A DNA stretch of 64,000 nt, from NCBI GenBank assembly GCA_963823555.1, contig CAWGMA010000001.1:1024001-1088000 (forward strand), given 5' to 3'. Source of the stretch: Candidatus Eiseniibacteriota bacterium. GTDB taxonomy: Bacteria > Eisenbacteria > RBG-16-71-46 > CAVPCR01. Positions 1-6,331 of the stretch are shown piece after piece (the first letter of the stretch is position 1; each line of letters opens with the position of its first letter). Below the pieces are notes generated by a model. It had not been told where the DNA came from. It saw only the letters and a list, made by a program, of their open reading frames with translations, and did no database searches. A program made the position numbers and the translations under genes.

Positions 1-2
1 TC

Positions 3-2177
3 ACGGATACCGGCAACGCGCTCGCCACCGACACCTCGGACGCCGTGTTCACGATCGCCGAGCAGGGCAGCAACCTGCCGCCGATCTGCGATGCGGGTGG
101 ACCCTATTCGGCCCTCGTCAACACGGCTGTCAGCTTCGATGGCAGCGGTTCGAGCGACCCCGACGGCACGATCACCTCCTACGCGTGGGATTTCGGCGAC
201 GGCTCGAGCGGGACCGGGGTCGCCCCGACGCACACCTACACGACGACCGGGACCTTCACCGTCGAACTCACCGTGACCGATGACCTGGATGCCTTTTCGA
301 CCTGCTCGGCCACGGCCACGATCACCGGGGAGAACCAGGCGCCCACCTGCGATGCGGGTGGCCCGTACACGGGTACGGTCGACATCGCCATCACGTTCGA
401 TGGCACCGGTTCAAGCGACCCCGACGGCACCATCACTTCCTACGCCTGGACCTTCGGAGATGGCTCGAGCGCGACCGGCGCCACACCGACCCATGCCTAT
501 GCTGCGGCCGGATCGTACTCGGTCGGACTCACGGTGACCGACAACGAAGGCGCCTCCTCGACCTGCACGACGACGGCGAATGTCACCGGTGGCGTGAACC
601 TGCCACCGGACTGCGACGCCGGCGGTTCCTACGCGGGTGTCGTCGGTTCGGCCATCAACTTCGACGGCCGGGATTCGAACGATCCGGACGGGAACATCGT
701 GTCCCACGCCTGGGACTTCGGCGACGGGTCGACGGCGACGGGGGCGACGGTGTCGCACGCCTACGCCACGACGGGAACGTTCACGGTGAGCCTGACCGTC
801 ACCGATGACGACGGTGCTTCCTCGACCTGCACGACGACCGCCGAAGTCGGCGAGGCCCCGACCGGGGTTCGCGTGGCGCTCCCGCCGCGTAGCTTCGGAT
901 CCCCCGGCGCGGACGTGGCGATTCCGGTCTTCGCCATCGATGACCTGACCGGGCTCGGCATCATCGCGATGGAGTTCGAGATCCGCTACAACCCGCACGT
1001 GCTGGTGGCCCAGGGTCTGCAGTTCGCGGGGACGATCGGCGAGGGCGCCACCTTCGAATGGCGCGTCGATCACCGCAGTCCGAGCGAGGACATCCTCCAC
1101 GTGGCGATGGCGTGGACCGAGCCGCTCGCCGACTGTGGCGAGATCGTCTACGTTCTCTACCAGGTATCCCCGGGCGACGCGAACCCGCGCACGCGGCTCG
1201 AGTTCTGGGCCCTCTTCAACGAGGGGGATCCCGCGGCGAACGCGCATGACGGGGAGTTCATCAAGGGACGCATCGGCGACGTCAACGGCTCGGGCCAGGT
1301 GTCGGCGATCGATGCCACGCTCGTTCTCCAGGAGACGGTTGGGATCATCCGCTTGCCCGATCCCAGCTATCCCTACTTCGTGCTCGAGATCGCGGACGTT
1401 TCAGGTAACGGCGAGATCCGTGCCTACGACGCCGCTCTCATCCTCCAGTACGTGCTCGGGATCATCGATCACTTCCCGGCGGAGGAGCAGTACCAGCTGG
1501 CGTGCGACCCGGGCGGACGGCATGTCGCCACCCGCGGGCCGGAGACCATGCGCACGCTCAGTCTCGAATGGGTGACGCCCACCGAGGCGGCTCTCTTCCT
1601 GGATGACGGCGCCGGAGTGATCGGGGCCGAGGCACGAATCGCCTTCGATTCGGGTCTCGCTCCGGACATCGAGATCCTGACCCAGCCTGGCGGTGGTGTC
1701 CTGATCGAGAGCGCCGCCGGCGACGGGTACGTGGATCTGGCCACGGTCATCGCCCGGCCCACTTCGGGCCGCACCGAGCTCGCTCGCATTCGTTTCGCGA
1801 GCGAGGTCACCGGTGCGCGCATCGAGAAGCCGAGCCTGAACGAAGGCCTGATCCCGGTCGTGATCACGAACGCACCGTTCTCCGGGGTGCCCGGCGCCGG
1901 TGCAGTGGTCCTCGCCCAGAACCGCCCGAATCCGTTCAACCCGGCGACCGAGATCAGCTTCTCGCTCGCCGTGGGTGGTCGGGTCGAGCTGGCCGTCTAC
2001 GACCTCTCGGGGCGGCGGGTGCGCTCGCTCATCCAGGGCGAGCTCCCGGCGGGTCCGCACGCCGCGCAGTGGAACGGTCGGGACGATACGGGCGCGCCCA
2101 TGGCGGCCGGCGTGTACCTCTACACGCTCGACGCGGCGGGAACGACGACGACCCGGAAGATGATCCTCCTCAAGTAG
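3..2177 (+). CDS. 5'-truncated secreted surface protein: 3 PKD repeats, cohesin-like domain, dockerin, C-terminal FlgD-Ig/T9SS-like domain
   Basis: Frame is open from the window edge. Three PKD repeats (FDGSGSSDPDGTITSYAWDFGDG...HTY...VELTVTDD), dockerin duplicated Ca loops (GDVNGSGQVSAIDA / ADVSGNGEIRAYDA), and a C-terminal QNRPNPFNP...VYDLSGRRVR...WNGRD...GVYLY...RKMILLK. Confidence 0.85.
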   Translation, partial: TDTGNALATDTSDAVFTIAEQGSNLPPICDAGGPYSALVNTAVSFDGSGSSDPDGTITSYAWDFGDGSSGTGVAPTHTYTTTGTFTVELTVTDDLDAFSTCSATATITGENQAPTCDAGGPYTGTVDIAITFDGTGSSDPDGTITSYAWTFGDGSSATGATPTHAYAAAGSYSVGLTVTDNEGASSTCTTTANVTGGVNLPPDCDAGGSYAGVVGSAINFDGRDSNDPDGNIVSHAWDFGDGSTATGATVSHAYATTGTFTVSLTVTDDDGASSTCTTTAEVGEAPTGVRVALPPRSFGSPGADVAIPVFAIDDLTGLGIIAMEFEIRYNPHVLVAQGLQFAGTIGEGATFEWRVDHRSPSEDILHVAMAWTEPLADCGEIVYVLYQVSPGDANPRTRLEFWALFNEGDPAANAHDGEFIKGRIGDVNGSGQVSAIDATLVLQETVGIIRLPDPSYPYFVLEIADVSGNGEIRAYDAALILQYVLGIIDHFPAEEQYQLACDPGGRHVATRGPETMRTLSLEWVTPTEAALFLDDGAGVIGAEARIAFDSGLAPDIEILTQPGGGVLIESAAGDGYVDLATVIARPTSGRTELARIRFASEVTGARIEKPSLNEGLIPVVITNAPFSGVPGAGAVVLAQNRPNPFNPATEISFSLAVGGRVELAVYDLSGRRVRSLIQGELPAGPHAAQWNGRDDTGAPMAAGVYLYTLDAAGTTTTRKMILLK

Positions 2178-2301: not shown

Positions 2302-3018
2302 ATGACGGAGGTTGGACCGAGCTGGAAAGCGGAGGCCGAAAGCGCCATCCGGCGGCTGCCGGGAGTCGTGGGGACTCACATCCGGATGCATGGTGATCAG
2401 ATCGGTGCCATCTTCGTGCAGACCGACGGCAGCCGCGAATCCCGGCGCTTCGTGCGCGATGTGGAAGCCATCCTGGCCACCACGGCGGGGATCGAAGTCG
2501 ACTACCGCAAGGTGTCGATCGCGGCCACCCCACCGCTGCACGGGCTGGAGGGGGAGGGACGCGCGCCAGCGCTCGAGGCTCAGCCCAAGCGACCGGCGTT
2601 CGAACATGTGCGACTCAATACCTCCGGGCTACGCACGGAGGCCCAGGTCGAGCTATCGCTTGGCGATGTCCATGTCCTCGGCTCGGCCGAGGGTCCGGCC
2701 ACCCGGGGGAGCGTTCTCGAACTCGTGGCCGAGGCGTGCCTGGCTGCCGCGACCCAGCTCGTCGATGAGCCGGTCTCATTCTCGCTGGGCGGGCTCGAGC
2801 GAGTCCGGGTCGGGCGGGACGAGGTCCTCATTGTCCTCGTCCGGTTCATCCAGGGCCGGAGCGAGAAGGCTCTGACCGGCTCGAGCCTCGCCGAACAGGA
2901 CGACCTGCGCTCGGTGACCTATGCCACGCTCGATGCCATCAACCGCACGTTCGGGAGCCTCCGCCAGCGGGAGGCCGTGGAGTATGTCCTCCACTCGGAG
3001 GTGACCCAAGAGGCTTGA
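2302..3018 (+). CDS. conserved hypothetical protein (start uncertain: 2203, 2284 or 2302)
   Basis: Native codon usage; GGGAGAGGG precedes ATG 2302; globular-looking protein (RDVEAIL...IEVDYRKVSIA; ATLDAINR). Confidence 0.7.
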   Translation: MTEVGPSWKAEAESAIRRLPGVVGTHIRMHGDQIGAIFVQTDGSRESRRFVRDVEAILATTAGIEVDYRKVSIAATPPLHGLEGEGRAPALEAQPKRPAFEHVRLNTSGLRTEAQVELSLGDVHVLGSAEGPATRGSVLELVAEACLAAATQLVDEPVSFSLGGLERVRVGRDEVLIVLVRFIQGRSEKALTGSSLAEQDDLRSVTYATLDAINRTFGSLRQREAVEYVLHSEVTQEA

Positions 3019-3053
3019 CCGACCACTGCTACTCGACCTGATCCAGAACTCGA

Positions 3054-3090
3054 TATCCGGCAGGTAATGGCTTGCCGGATAGCGTTTTAT
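3054..3090 (+). terminator. putative intrinsic terminator
   Basis: TATCCGGCAGG / CTTGCCGGATA stem (one G-U) with a 6-nt loop, followed by GCGTTTTAT. Confidence 0.5.
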
Positions 3091-3196
3091 ATGGGCGACA
3101 AGTAGATTGTCGAGGCCCCGGGGAGAGGGGGAGGCGGCCGGCGGAGAGCCCCCGATTCAGCGTCGGGAACGGTCCGGGGGCCCGCGCAAAAGCCCC

Positions 3197-3226
3197 TTGA
3201 CCGGGGGGCGGGAGGCGGCTCAAGAT
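3197..3226 (+). promoter_or_regulatory. putative sigma70 promoter
   Basis: TTGACC-N18-CAAGAT upstream of the long leader and small ORF. Confidence 0.35.
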
Positions 3227-3461
3227 CCGGGCTGTTCATGGGCGCGGCTCGAGCACGATCGGATCCCGGACGATCCAATCGGGCTGGCCTCGCCTGATCG
3301 AAGTGGTGAAGCCGACATCCGATTGGCAGGTGGTAGGACGCTTTAGCGGAGCGGACCCGAGCCAGCGGAGCATCTCCCCCCGTCGAGGGCATTGCCGTGG
3401 CGATGCCGCCCGACGGCCGGACACCACGGATGGTTCATCCAAAAACAAGGAGGTGGCTCCC

Positions 3462-3527
3462 ATGTTCGCCATGATCGGCTGGTTCAATTTCATTATCGCC
3501 CTGCTTGGCGGGCGTGCAGGCTGGTAG
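3462..3527 (+). CDS. 21-aa hydrophobic peptide MFAMIGWFNFIIALLGGRAGW
   Basis: Consensus Shine-Dalgarno AAGGAGGT at 3447-3454, 7 nt before ATG 3462; TAG ends at 3527. Confidence 0.7.
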   Translation: MFAMIGWFNFIIALLGGRAGW

Positions 3528-3570
3528 TCGTTCGAGGCCGCTGTTAGTGACGTCGGCTTGCCACTAACGC

Positions 3571-3604
3571 GGCGGTCCTGGAGACGCGGGTCTCCGGGAC
3601 CGCC
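3571..3604 (+). promoter_or_regulatory. strong RNA hairpin between the peptide ORF and the HD-GYP gene
   Basis: GGCGGTCCTGGAGAC-GCGG-GTCTCCGGGACCGCC, a 15-bp stem with one G-U. Confidence 0.6.
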
Positions 3605-3712
3605 GTGAGACATCCCCCCTCCATCGTGCCCCGGGGTGGGAACAGCGAACACCCGTCGCGCCCTGGGGCTTCATTGTTGCCCCACCATGGACGCGGCCAG
3701 GAATGGGGCACT

Positions 3713-5107
3713 ATGAACGACTCTCGCGTCGCTCGCCTCTTACGTCTGGATTCCTTCCTTGCCGCCCTGGCCTCGGCGTTGGCCGCGCTCTCCGCCGGGT
3801 TCGCCGATCGCATTCGCCAGACGCTCCCGGTCCTGGCTCTCGCCTCGTGCGTCATCGCTGCTGCGACCGCGCTCCTCTGGATGACGACGCATGCCGCCGG
3901 CACGGCGGTTCCCATTCGACCCGCCCTCTTCATCTTGTGGGTTGGGCTCCTGGTCGTGACCGAGCTCACTCCGGTGCGCATGCCGCGCGGCGGGTTCATG
4001 ACGGTGTCGTCCGCGCTCGACTACGCCGCCATCATCCTCTTCGGCCCCCTCGCTGCGGCCTGGATCGACGTGGCTTCCGGCGTGGTGGCGCATGGGGTCT
4101 TGAGGCCTCGCCATCCGCTTCGTCTGGCCTACAACCTCGCCACCTATGTCCTCGCTGCCTTCGCTGCCGGCGCCGTCTATGACGGCCTCGGCGGTTCGTT
4201 CGGTTCGTTCGTGCTCAACGCGCAGAACCTGGTCGCGCTGGCCGGACTCGGCATCACCTACTTCGCCGTCAACACGGGGCTCGTGAGCCTCGCGCTGGCC
4301 GCCGAATCGGCCTCGGATCCCTGGCGGGTGTGGCAGGTCAACTACCGCTGGACGCTGCGCCACCTCGTCGCCTTCCTGCCGCTCGGCGCCCTGGTCGCCC
4401 TGGTTCATTTGACCTGGGGGTTCTCGGCGCTTGCGCTATTCCTCCTCCCGCTCTTCCTGGCGCGCCACACGTTCAGCCTCTACGTCGAGATGCGTGAGGA
4501 TCTGGTCGATTTCTCGACGGCGCTCGTCGGTGTGATGGAGGAGGTCGATCCCTATACCCGCCGGCACTCGATCCGCGTGGCCAGCTACGCCGAGCGCCTG
4601 AGTCGCGGCATGGGGCGGCCGGAACCCGAGGTCGAGAAGATCCGCCTCGCCGGACTTCTCCACGACCTGGGCAAGGTCGGACAGACGGCGGCGTTGCTGC
4701 AAAAGCCGGGGCGCCTCGATCCCGAGGAAAAGCAGCGGATCCAGACTCATCCCGGTGCCGGAGCTGACATCGTCGGCCGCATCCGTGCTTTCAGCGAGGT
4801 CGCGACCCTCGTGCGCTATCACCACGAACGACTCGATGGCATGGGGTATCCCTCGCGGCTACGCGGCGAGTCGATCCCGCTCGGATCGCGCATCGTCCTC
4901 GTCGCCGACGCCTTCGACGCCATGACTTCCGATCGTCCCTATCGCGCCGGCATGGCACCGGAGCAGGCGATCGCCGAGCTCAAGGCCCACGCCGGAACGC
5001 AATTCGATCCTGCGGTGGTCGCCGCTCTGGCCCGTCTCTGGGAGCGCAGGGAGTTCCCCGTCATCCGGCATTCCGTGGGCGACCTCGATATCCGCCTCGC
5101 CAGCTAG
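3713..5107 (+). CDS. membrane-bound HD-GYP c-di-GMP phosphodiesterase with a multi-TM N-terminal sensor domain
   Basis: DPYTRRHS, LLHDLGK, HHERLDGMGYP, VADAFDAMTSDRPYR and GTQFDP motifs; several hydrophobic helices N-terminally. Confidence 0.92.
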   Translation: MNDSRVARLLRLDSFLAALASALAALSAGFADRIRQTLPVLALASCVIAAATALLWMTTHAAGTAVPIRPALFILWVGLLVVTELTPVRMPRGGFMTVSSALDYAAIILFGPLAAAWIDVASGVVAHGVLRPRHPLRLAYNLATYVLAAFAAGAVYDGLGGSFGSFVLNAQNLVALAGLGITYFAVNTGLVSLALAAESASDPWRVWQVNYRWTLRHLVAFLPLGALVALVHLTWGFSALALFLLPLFLARHTFSLYVEMREDLVDFSTALVGVMEEVDPYTRRHSIRVASYAERLSRGMGRPEPEVEKIRLAGLLHDLGKVGQTAALLQKPGRLDPEEKQRIQTHPGAGADIVGRIRAFSEVATLVRYHHERLDGMGYPSRLRGESIPLGSRIVLVADAFDAMTSDRPYRAGMAPEQAIAELKAHAGTQFDPAVVAALARLWERREFPVIRHSVGDLDIRLAS

Positions 5108-5221: not shown

Positions 5222-6331
5222 ATGAGCTCGCTGTGTCCAGCCCTGGCGGAAAGCCCGACCACCGCCTCACCAGGAGCCCCGGTTCTCATCGGCCATAGCG
5301 CGGCGATGACCGCGGTCATTGCCGCCGCCACGCGCGTGGCCGCCTCCACCGCCGCCGTCCTCATCGAAGGAGAGACGGGAACCGGCAAGGAACTCGTTGC
5401 GCGCCTGATCCACGCCCGCAGCCGCCGCTCGCGCTCTCCCTTCGTGTCGCACAACGCGGGAGCCACTCCCGACACCCTGATCGAGAGCGAGCTCTTCGGT
5501 CACGCCCGCGGATCGTTCACCGGCGCCGTGCGCGATCACCGTGGGCTCTTCGCCGCCGCCGACGGGGGGACGCTCTTCCTCGACGAGATCGCCGACGTGA
5601 GCCCGCTCATGCAGGCGAAGCTCCTGCGCGTCCTCCAGGAGGGCGAGTTCCGGCGCGTGGGCGAGACGCACTCCCGCCACCTCGATGCGCGCCTCATCGC
5701 CGCCACCAACCGCCCGCTCGAGGGCGAGGTGAGCGCCGGTCGCTTCCGCGTCGATCTCTTCTATCGGCTGCATGTCGTCAAGATCACCCTGCCTCCGCTC
5801 CGCGAACGGAGCGCGGATATCCCGGCTCTCGCCGCGCACTTCGCCGCCCGCTTCGCCCTGAGCGAGGGGAGCCCGCCGATCACGCTCACGCCGCCGGCCT
5901 CGTTTGCGCTCCGCCGTTACGGATGGCCGGGCAATGTGCGCGAGCTGGAGAACGAGATCCGGCGGCTCACGGCGCTGCACGCCGGGGAAGAGGTCACAGT
6001 GCGCAAGCTCTCGGACCGCGTTCGCTCCGCGCTCGTGAGCGGAGGCTCGATCGCAGAGTCGCCCCGGGGGCGGAGCCTGGCCTCCCGGGTCGAGGCCCTC
6101 GAGCGCCGCCTCATTGCCGAGGGGCTCGTGCGCTTCGCCGGGAACAAGACCCGGGTAGCCCGCGATCTCGGACTCTCGCGCCAGGGTCTGGCGAAGAAGA
6201 TGCGGCGCTACGGGCTCCGGTGGGTGATCCCGGCGGCCAGCAGTGAGATCGGGCCGGATGAGCTCCATGCGGAAGAGCTGCGCGCGGGCGAGCTGGACCC
6301 GCTGGCGCTTGCCGCGGTGAAGGCCCCGTGA
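5222..6331 (+). CDS. sigma-54-dependent transcriptional activator (AAA+ plus Fis HTH, no N-terminal regulatory domain)
   Basis: [36 protein letters not shown] and the [17 protein letters not shown]. Confidence 0.92.

Follow-up and report, generated by a model that had tools for sequence, protein, structure and literature searches.

A stretch of 64,000 nucleotides (nt) from the genome of Candidatus Eiseniibacteriota bacterium (contig CAWGMA010000001.1, positions 1,024,001 to 1,088,000 of the forward strand), hereafter called the window, was analysed around a 21-codon open reading frame (ORF). This micro-ORF precedes a gene for an HD-GYP phosphodiesterase of cyclic di-GMP (c-di-GMP) whose membrane sensor resembles the MASE9 domain. 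It encodes a hydrophobic helix followed by a C-terminal tail, G-R-A-G-W, and by sequence comparison it is a conserved gene. The tail may well act in trans as a ligand of MASE9 sensors; on the comparative evidence presented here, a probability of about 0.55 was assigned to this reading.

Conservation of the micro-ORF and its association with MASE9-like sensors

A ribosome-binding site (RBS; AAGGAGGT, 3447..3454, plus strand) and a hidden ORF of 21 amino acids (3462..3527, plus strand) in front of the co-directional HD-GYP gene (3713..5107) had been reported in a preliminary description of this DNA and were recovered here. The start codon (ATG 3462) lies 7 nt behind the RBS, the stop codon is TAG (3525-3527), and the tail is encoded at 3510-3524; the GGAG core of the RBS is conserved in relatives. 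The peptide had been thought to escape gene calling, and its exact form is indeed absent from the approximately 15 billion called proteins of a public collection. No match to Pfam or NCBIfam models was obtained for it either. Among 897 RBS-led short ORF candidates in the same genome (duplicates included), only the micro-ORF of the window shows a tail of this kind. A longer frame of 74 amino acids with a GTG start (3303-3527) was discarded as the gene, since relatives conserve only the RBS-led portion. The idea of a double-glycine leader was also discarded, because GG is missing in many members and a C39 peptidase was not found.

Trp is invariant across 33 aligned micro-ORF peptides, and G[RK][ASG]GW is present in 26 of 39; among those, the first Gly is encoded by all four codons and Arg/Lys by six. 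Compared with the copy of the same genus, the ORF of the window displays seven synonymous and three non-synonymous codon differences. The tail being kept despite synonymous changes, selection appears to act on the residues. Within the ORF, one low-depth DNA contig has three conservative substitutions and a silent change. Overlooked by gene callers, this gene family is widespread in the phylum: one tail pattern alone matches 110 of 201 genomes, some of them by chance.

The scan upstream of homologous enzyme genes, as proposed in the preliminary description, was done with a fixed rule (RBS, 14-45 amino acids, hydrophobic run, Trp within the last four residues). The set comprised 61 genomes of the class, giving 44 orthologous loci, of which 42 were retained after two with short flanks had been dropped. 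A Trp-ending, RBS-led ORF was found upstream of 30 of these 42 orthologues and of none of nine long paralogues with a degenerate sensor. Loci with an HD domain only, thus without sensor, gave one hit in 54 (five short ones dropped), and shuffled flanks gave 14/840 and 30/1080, that is about 2-3%. Sensor-bearing GTDB loci from several phyla gave 8 hits in 18, the 18 being what remained of 21 after removal of an indexing artefact (L009) and of two loci whose flanks were short. Of the 12 misses in the class, one locus (L100) has a clear GKAGW ORF below the hydrophobicity cut-off, one is L105, and ten belong to family f9. In the 11 genomes of f9 that have no ORF before the enzyme gene, the sensor residues are retained; eight of them have a micro-ORF at a separate site (without the TGGCA(C/T) box described below) and ten have lipoprotein tails.

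Loss and displacement follow the same association. Twelve loci keep the usual upstream gene, which encodes a LeuA-allosteric-like protein, without a following enzyme gene, and in 11 of them the micro-ORF is absent as well. Where an insert separates the upstream gene from the enzyme gene (L152/L108), the ORF stays on the enzyme side. In family f16, no MASE9-like match was obtained in any of 14 genomes and a real micro-ORF is absent (one chance match in the 14). Among the genomes checked, the micro-ORF was seen solely in those also having a MASE9-like protein. Direct adjacency is not the only arrangement, as ten orphan loci, each holding one to three micro-ORFs that end in GRAGW or GKAGW, lack a MASE9-like gene within about 3 kb.

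The enzyme, its predicted sensor fold and other carriers of the tail

The enzyme gene (3713..5107, plus strand) most likely starts at ATG 3713, and the resulting length of 464 amino acids agrees with the entry in the public collection. Among named relatives, Ca. Eisenbacteria records rank best. The protein combines a MASE9-like membrane sensor (about residues 60-250) with an HD-GYP domain (residues 275-435), the latter matching the Pfam model HD_5 with an E-value of 2e-37. Alignment to PmGH (4mcw, E 1.5e-31) revealed that the HD, HHERLDGMGYP, KPG and RPYR motifs as well as the metal-binding His/Asp residues are intact. At the position of PmGH E185, where the trinuclear subtype acting down to GMP has Glu, a Tyr is present (DPYT). 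The guanine-specificity meaning of RxY[K/R] and the binuclear versus trinuclear assignment follow a review on the HD-GYP family; owing to this Tyr, the enzyme of the window is likely a binuclear c-di-GMP phosphodiesterase that stops at pGpG.

The membrane region had been tentatively considered as MASE-type, and it resembles MASE9: the match to PF20972 is weak in the window (E 4e-4, 20.7 and 22.5 bits against a Pfam cut-off of 24.3), and six homologues found with the sensor profile score 26-37 bits, over the cut-off. The domain is formed of multiple helices with conserved Asn/Ser and aromatic residues and precedes the HD-GYP domain. An AlphaFold2 model of residues 1-276 (pLDDT 90) was submitted to a wide structure search, in which the top 15 ranks were all S-components of energy-coupling factor (ECF) transporters, the first outsider reaching Z 8.3. 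The best match was the NikM-type 4m5c (Z 16.3, root-mean-square deviation 3.3, 192 aligned residues), and RibU (5kbw) was found with Z 15.0. Foldseek ranked the same family first, but with an E-value of only 6.5e-3. An S-component fold is thus predicted for the sensor. The pocket in which S-components bind their small ligands is open to the outside. Residues N141, N187 and W207 are kept in 29, 28 and 29 of 30 peptide-linked orthologues, in 19 of 19 stand-alone forms, and in five, seven and seven of seven kinase forms; peptide-less paralogues retain them in just one, one and three of nine. These three residues may line the sensor pocket.

Some observations concern the sensor and the genes next to it. 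In two near relatives (L125, L126) the sensor part appears out of frame with respect to the HD-GYP part, by frameshift or assembly error, and the GRAGW ORF is intact. A second MASE9-like protein of the same genome (L167, G000:C1:2088899-2089468) is a histidine kinase fusion without an adjacent tail carrier, and the peptide may act on this kinase as well. The enzyme gene is immediately followed, at positions 5222-6331, by a gene for a sigma54-dependent activator (AAA+, HTH) without N-terminal input domain. In L001 the enzyme gene is separated by a purM-like gene from an activator of this kind; the window has no purM at this place.

The tail is also encountered as a repeated unit and on unrelated proteins. 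Three core repeats are present in L085 and two each in L098 and L151, while micro-ORF genes stand in tandem in L157, L159, L160 and L163. Two Chloroflexota loci (L017:3236-3640 and L023:3323-3525) have helix-less Trp arrays before MASE9-like HD-GYP genes, in form of five tandem 18-codon Trp-motif ORFs with their own RBS each, or of one ORF of NVKWS repeats. A second type of carrier was detected with the pattern HFS, 2-11 codons, [RK]AGW and stop, which gave 44 matches in 23 of the 61 genomes and two in the control; 43 of the 44 were in frame. A lipobox-like start was recognised in 27 of 35 carriers examined, HFS is invariant in 20 of 20, and the C-termini extend 7-16 residues beyond HF. The model of a carrier is a beta-sandwich in which strands 132-139 and 142-146 flank F140-S141; it matched ankyrin ZU5 (E 1.8e-5; Z 12.5) and CD97 GAIN (Z 10.1), and a ZU5/GAIN fold is predicted for these lipoproteins. 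Sequence searches of the carriers against solved structures and NCBIfam gave no match. For 19 of the 44 carriers, in 14 genomes, a MASE9-like gene is found at a distance of at most 2.5 kb; it is mostly of the stand-alone form and directly follows or precedes the carrier gene. Across families, Arg/Lys of the micro-ORFs and of the lipoproteins agreed in 13 of 13 genomes, but this agreement was not strict within family f10. In L191, L192 and L193, MASE9-like proteins whose C-terminus bears a kinase-type extension are preceded by carriers with other tails (GTADW, GGGAGWG). In genome G005 a micro-ORF ends with GGGAGWG, and the HD-GYP gene has no ORF in front.

The tail as candidate ligand and competing readings

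The preliminary description had proposed that the peptide is a ligand or an intramembrane regulator of the phosphodiesterase. Comparative support for this alternative as a whole was obtained from co-occurrence, co-loss, selection on the tail, the predicted sensor fold and the presence of the tail on exported carriers. The accompanying picture of a dedicated quorum-sensing pair of one peptide and one enzyme was not supported as such, as the peptide is often encoded elsewhere and several MASE9 proteins with different outputs are present per genome; nor was a C39-type exporter, as expected of a quorum-sensing module, found in the same, 92.5% complete genome. In the reading preferred here, the micro-ORF product would be a carrier for the C-terminal G-R-A-G-W motif. 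The hydrophobic helix would deliver the tail to the membrane, where it would be displayed or cut free by a protease. The motif would then bind the predicted outward-facing pocket of the MASE9-like domain and switch the HD-GYP domain, changing the level of c-di-GMP; in the window the output would be c-di-GMP breakdown. Lipoproteins would cut themselves at HF|S, freeing the last strand with the same tail, and every MASE9 protein of the cell or of a neighbour, be it an HD-GYP enzyme, a histidine kinase or a stand-alone form, could be a target of the motif in trans. The RNA fold and the repeats described below would set the peptide output.

Binding might activate the enzyme rather than inhibit it; this is a guess, based on the need for an input of an HD-GYP output that is isolated and linked by a helix, and on the arrangement in L011, where a c-di-GMP-I riboswitch (L011:145-234) is followed by a 31-amino-acid Trp-tailed ORF and the enzyme gene. 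This unit would close a feedback loop if the switch turns expression on.

Several observations weigh against a trans-acting ligand. The sole charge of the window peptide is Arg18, located in the tail; by the positive-inside rule this favours a cytoplasmic tail. A C39 peptidase (PF03412) was not found in the same genome, which is 92.5% complete, AgrB not having been searched for, and a lipoprotein carrier was not found there either. Complex prediction with a natural homologue of 37 amino acids and its own sensor domain (L098) reached 0.11 against a mark of 0.32, a score that points in neither direction. In the structural comparison, Foldseek gave no match at E 0.001 or better, and helical bundles yield high Z scores anyway. 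A Trp peptide is absent from ten of the 18 GTDB loci with a sensor. Genome G008 retains ORF and repeats without the enzyme gene, a MASE9-like kinase being encoded 9 kb away, and the genomes of f16 are kin, hence their co-loss counts as one event. With respect to the carriers, 25 of 44 are not near a MASE9-like gene (0 of 20 on re-check), nor are any of 17 metagenome carriers, although only nine of these have more than 1 kb of DNA. The tail is found at the end of only four of 30 wider carrier homologues, and within a family Arg/Lys of the two carrier types agreed in 14 cases, were mixed in one and differed in three (n = 18).

The strongest competitor, to which a minor yet appreciable share of belief was given, is that the peptide stays uncleaved and pairs, as a single membrane helix, with the sensor of its own cell; helix packing would then matter as much as the tail, and nothing would be released or passed between cells. 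MgrB, which acts with PhoQ, is a model for such a partner. The hydrophobicity of 13-residue windows (2.1-2.8 in many members) fits a membrane helix, and the window peptide has no signal-peptide n-region. The lone Arg of the tail and the missing known exporter keep this reading alive. It also fits that the best fold match of the sensor is of NikM type, since NikM-type S-components have an extra N-terminal helix and a segment inserting in the pocket. On the other side, many micro-ORF members are acidic amphipathic peptides of 16 amino acids, too short for spanning a membrane. Moreover, precursors with multiple cores or without helix exist, and an identical tail is present on soluble beta-sandwich lipoproteins.

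Somewhat less probable is that the tail is read by a factor other than MASE9, such as a sorting or modifying enzyme or kinase-TPR-sigma54 activators, the link to MASE9 reflecting shared regulation. The 25 carriers away from MASE9 genes speak for such a reader, as do the input-less sigma54 activator following the enzyme gene in the window and the orphan micro-ORF loci, five of ten having a sigma54 activator within about 3 kb and several having kinase-AAA-TPR proteins. The promoter regions point in the opposite direction: a sigma54-type TGGCA(C/T) box is present upstream of 10 of 10 orphan micro-ORFs versus 1 of 39 in-operon copies, which would make the peptides outputs of the activators. In addition, a sorting signal on a peptide without cargo is hard to account for, and two unrelated carriers directly adjoin MASE9-like genes.

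Returning to the tail as a ligand of MASE9 sensors, the system would work like peptide signalling via a neighbouring membrane receptor, judged by analogy. AgrD/AgrC and ComC/ComD perform peptide quorum sensing through membrane receptors. They likewise have a small peptide gene adjoining a multi-helix membrane sensor with enzymatic output; here, the output is a c-di-GMP phosphodiesterase, the sensor has a predicted S-component fold, a C39 exporter was not found, and the tail is near-identical across a phylum instead of strain-specific. With the S-components NikM/CbiM, RibU, FolT and BioY the sensor model shares the fold (Z 12-16 over 150-190 residues), but the sensor is fused to a signalling enzyme, the identity is 10-14%, and a common fold does not show a ligand. 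MgrB and SafA are small membrane proteins that regulate sensors. These two and the C. difficile proteins controlled by c-di-GMP riboswitches are likewise overlooked hydrophobic micro-ORFs tied to signalling, the riboswitch of L011 being a further parallel. In the accessible part of the report on the C. difficile proteins (PMC13724677), these are about 57 amino acids or longer with a basic helical core and no motif in common with the micro-ORF, and multi-core or lipoprotein-borne forms are not described.

MASE9-HD-GYP enzymes, such as T. maritima TM1467 and S. venezuelae HdgA, share the membrane domain with conserved Asn and aromatic residues and the HD-GYP domain, and MASE9 is also fused to other outputs, like here (10.1101/2021.11.05.467447, PMC6205966). 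Stand-alone and histidine-kinase forms beside tail carriers distinguish the present system from the enzymes described. The authors of the MASE9 paper suggest that a ligand is bound inside the membrane but name none, and in its main text the words 'peptide' and 'neighborhood' do not occur and no gene neighbourhood is given (10.1101/2021.11.05.467447). A literature search gave no paper on a MASE9 ligand or on this tail motif, subscription journals and bioRxiv supplements being outside its coverage.

The lipoprotein route resembles the tethered agonist of adhesion G protein-coupled receptors (GPCRs); here, the C-terminal piece of the carriers would be a free strand of 7-16 residues, acting on a proposed receptor that is not part of the same protein. 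MAIN domains, which have the ZU5/GAIN fold, are cut between F and S with no known signalling role of the C-terminal piece (10.64898/2026.05.12.724683), and an earlier report describes autoproteases of the ZU5 type in surface proteins of bacteria (PMC3482391). The carriers share with them the predicted fold and the invariant HFS before the last strand, self-cleavage having been demonstrated for MAIN domains only. In contrast to MAIN surface proteins, no C-terminal envelope anchor follows the domain, the anchor being N-terminal (lipobox-like starts above). A broader proposal, held tentatively and with clearly less confidence than the ligand reading itself, is an adhesion-GPCR-like logic divided between two genes, in which MASE9, with the fold of a vitamin transporter, would be the peptide receptor and a single C-terminal Trp motif would arrive via two routes. 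One would be the hidden micro-genes, controlled by RNA or sigma54; the other would start from self-cut ZU5 lipoproteins, whose cryptic strand would come free on pulling them apart. Peptides made by the cell and peptides released by force or damage would then feed c-di-GMP and kinase signalling. If the ligand reading is true, a c-di-GMP enzyme is regulated by a peptide that acts directly on its membrane domain, and MASE9, a sensor domain without known input, gains a five-residue candidate ligand that can be cheaply synthesised. It also bears on the open question whether the cut C-terminal strand of microbial GAIN-like domains signals.

RNA around the micro-ORF and surroundings of the module

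The micro-ORF is possibly carried by an RNA of its own. By eye, a sigma70-type promoter is predicted at 3197..3226 on the plus strand (TTGACC 3197-3202, CAAGAT 3221-3226), a pair that a consensus promoter scan did not call; promoter-like pairs TTGAC/CA(A/C)GAT are also present upstream in L136, L126 and L125, and a more degenerate one in L122. Contigs from seven of seven metatranscriptome runs fall in 3246-3680, five of them starting at 3246-3248, about 20 nt downstream of the predicted promoter, and a DNA contig (3164-3427) passes through this start point. The contig ends give a weak hint at a discrete RNA of about 310-340 nt (3246..3583, plus strand assumed), contigs being unstranded and giving neither strand nor level. 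In the same seven runs no near-identical contig was seen over the enzyme gene, such cover being unable to rank genes.

A long-range stem with its 5' arm at 3309..3319 and its 3' arm at 3549..3559 (both plus strand; pair probability about 0.75) encloses the RBS and the micro-ORF. Over 26 loci, 90.8% of the cells pair and two-sided changes occur in 10 of 13 pairs, which was matched by none of 500 shuffles and exceeds all slid registers; the helix was defined from the same 26 sequences that served for its test, and these are kin. Two AGCG(A/G)AGC direct repeats (3345..3371, plus strand; copies at 3345-3353 and 3364-3371) follow the 5' arm, the second with six positions invariant over the 26 loci. 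They are likely protein-binding sites. A genome-wide enrichment of the tandem pattern over its control was not found, so the pattern carries weight only through its position. The stem and at least one repeat are present in Bacillota and Actinomycetota loci too. An anti-Shine-Dalgarno element is predicted at 3371..3377 (plus strand), and GGAGGT is predicted to be paired (unpaired probability 0.05 or less); the element alone is weak when compared with shuffles (38/100). A switch in which a protein on the repeats opens the RBS was not reproduced: with the repeats forced unpaired, only two of six paired RBS bases were freed. A GC-rich hairpin (3570..3605, plus strand; 94% complementary) between the micro-ORF and the enzyme gene may mark or protect the 3' end of the RNA. 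U-rich runs are found 3' of the stem in several loci.

The 5' arm and the end of the upstream gene overlap in many relatives; in the window and its nearest relatives the promoter-like pair lies in between. At 3300-3320 of the window, the 5' arm read in frame gives E-V-V-K-P-T-S, resembling the C-terminus of the upstream gene product of relatives, and the upstream gene of the window stops 290 nt before this stretch. It is likely a remnant of an older coupled layout, as far as can be judged from sequence.

These elements are what a cis-acting leader would display, whose translation would refold the RNA and control whether the enzyme gene is expressed, the peptide itself being without function. 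A covarying stem with a predicted anti-Shine-Dalgarno element encloses the ORF, the overlap with the upstream gene would suit translational coupling, and the U-rich runs after the 3' arm fit as well. This explanation is nevertheless improbable, since the tail recurs on lipoproteins and the ORF is conserved also without repeats and without an enzyme gene behind it, the latter arguing against a mere leader. The single terminal Trp codon, moreover, is unlike the leader of a Trp-sensing attenuator. Even if the leader explanation is wrong, the RNA may control synthesis of the peptide. Very unlikely is a type I toxin-antitoxin-like locus, in which 5'-3' pairing and the anti-Shine-Dalgarno element would silence a small hydrophobic toxin: the discrete RNA, long-range stem, sequestered RBS and short hydrophobic ORF resemble hok or aapA mRNAs, but the locus is single-copy, syntenic and sensor-linked, its conserved polar tail is common to lipoproteins, and an Rfam antitoxin match is absent. 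For window positions 2900-3900 the best Rfam E-value was 0.93, and across 18 loci only the c-di-GMP-I riboswitch of L011 was detected.

The usual upstream neighbour of the module, the LeuA-allosteric-like hypothetical protein, is encoded at 2308..3018 (plus strand; the ORF opens at 2203, the likely start being 2308). No Pfam or NCBIfam match was obtained for it; it matched Atlas clusters at 0.92-0.93, one of them labelled LeuA allosteric domain, and the gene was matched in 46 of the 61 genomes. A weak terminator-like hairpin follows it (3054..3091, plus strand; two found versus a shuffle mean of 0.9). Between the micro-ORF and the enzyme start, at 3626-3641, a motif GTGCCCCGGGG(C/T)GGG is shared with L126, L122 and L125. 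Integron attC-like repeated elements with GCG(A/G)AGCG runs occur elsewhere in the genome (G000:C3:412860-430163), and a longer array is present in G001:C4. At the beginning of the window (1-2177), a large surface-type protein is encoded, with three PKD domains, cohesin-like and dockerin domains and a FlgD/secretion-tail C-terminus.

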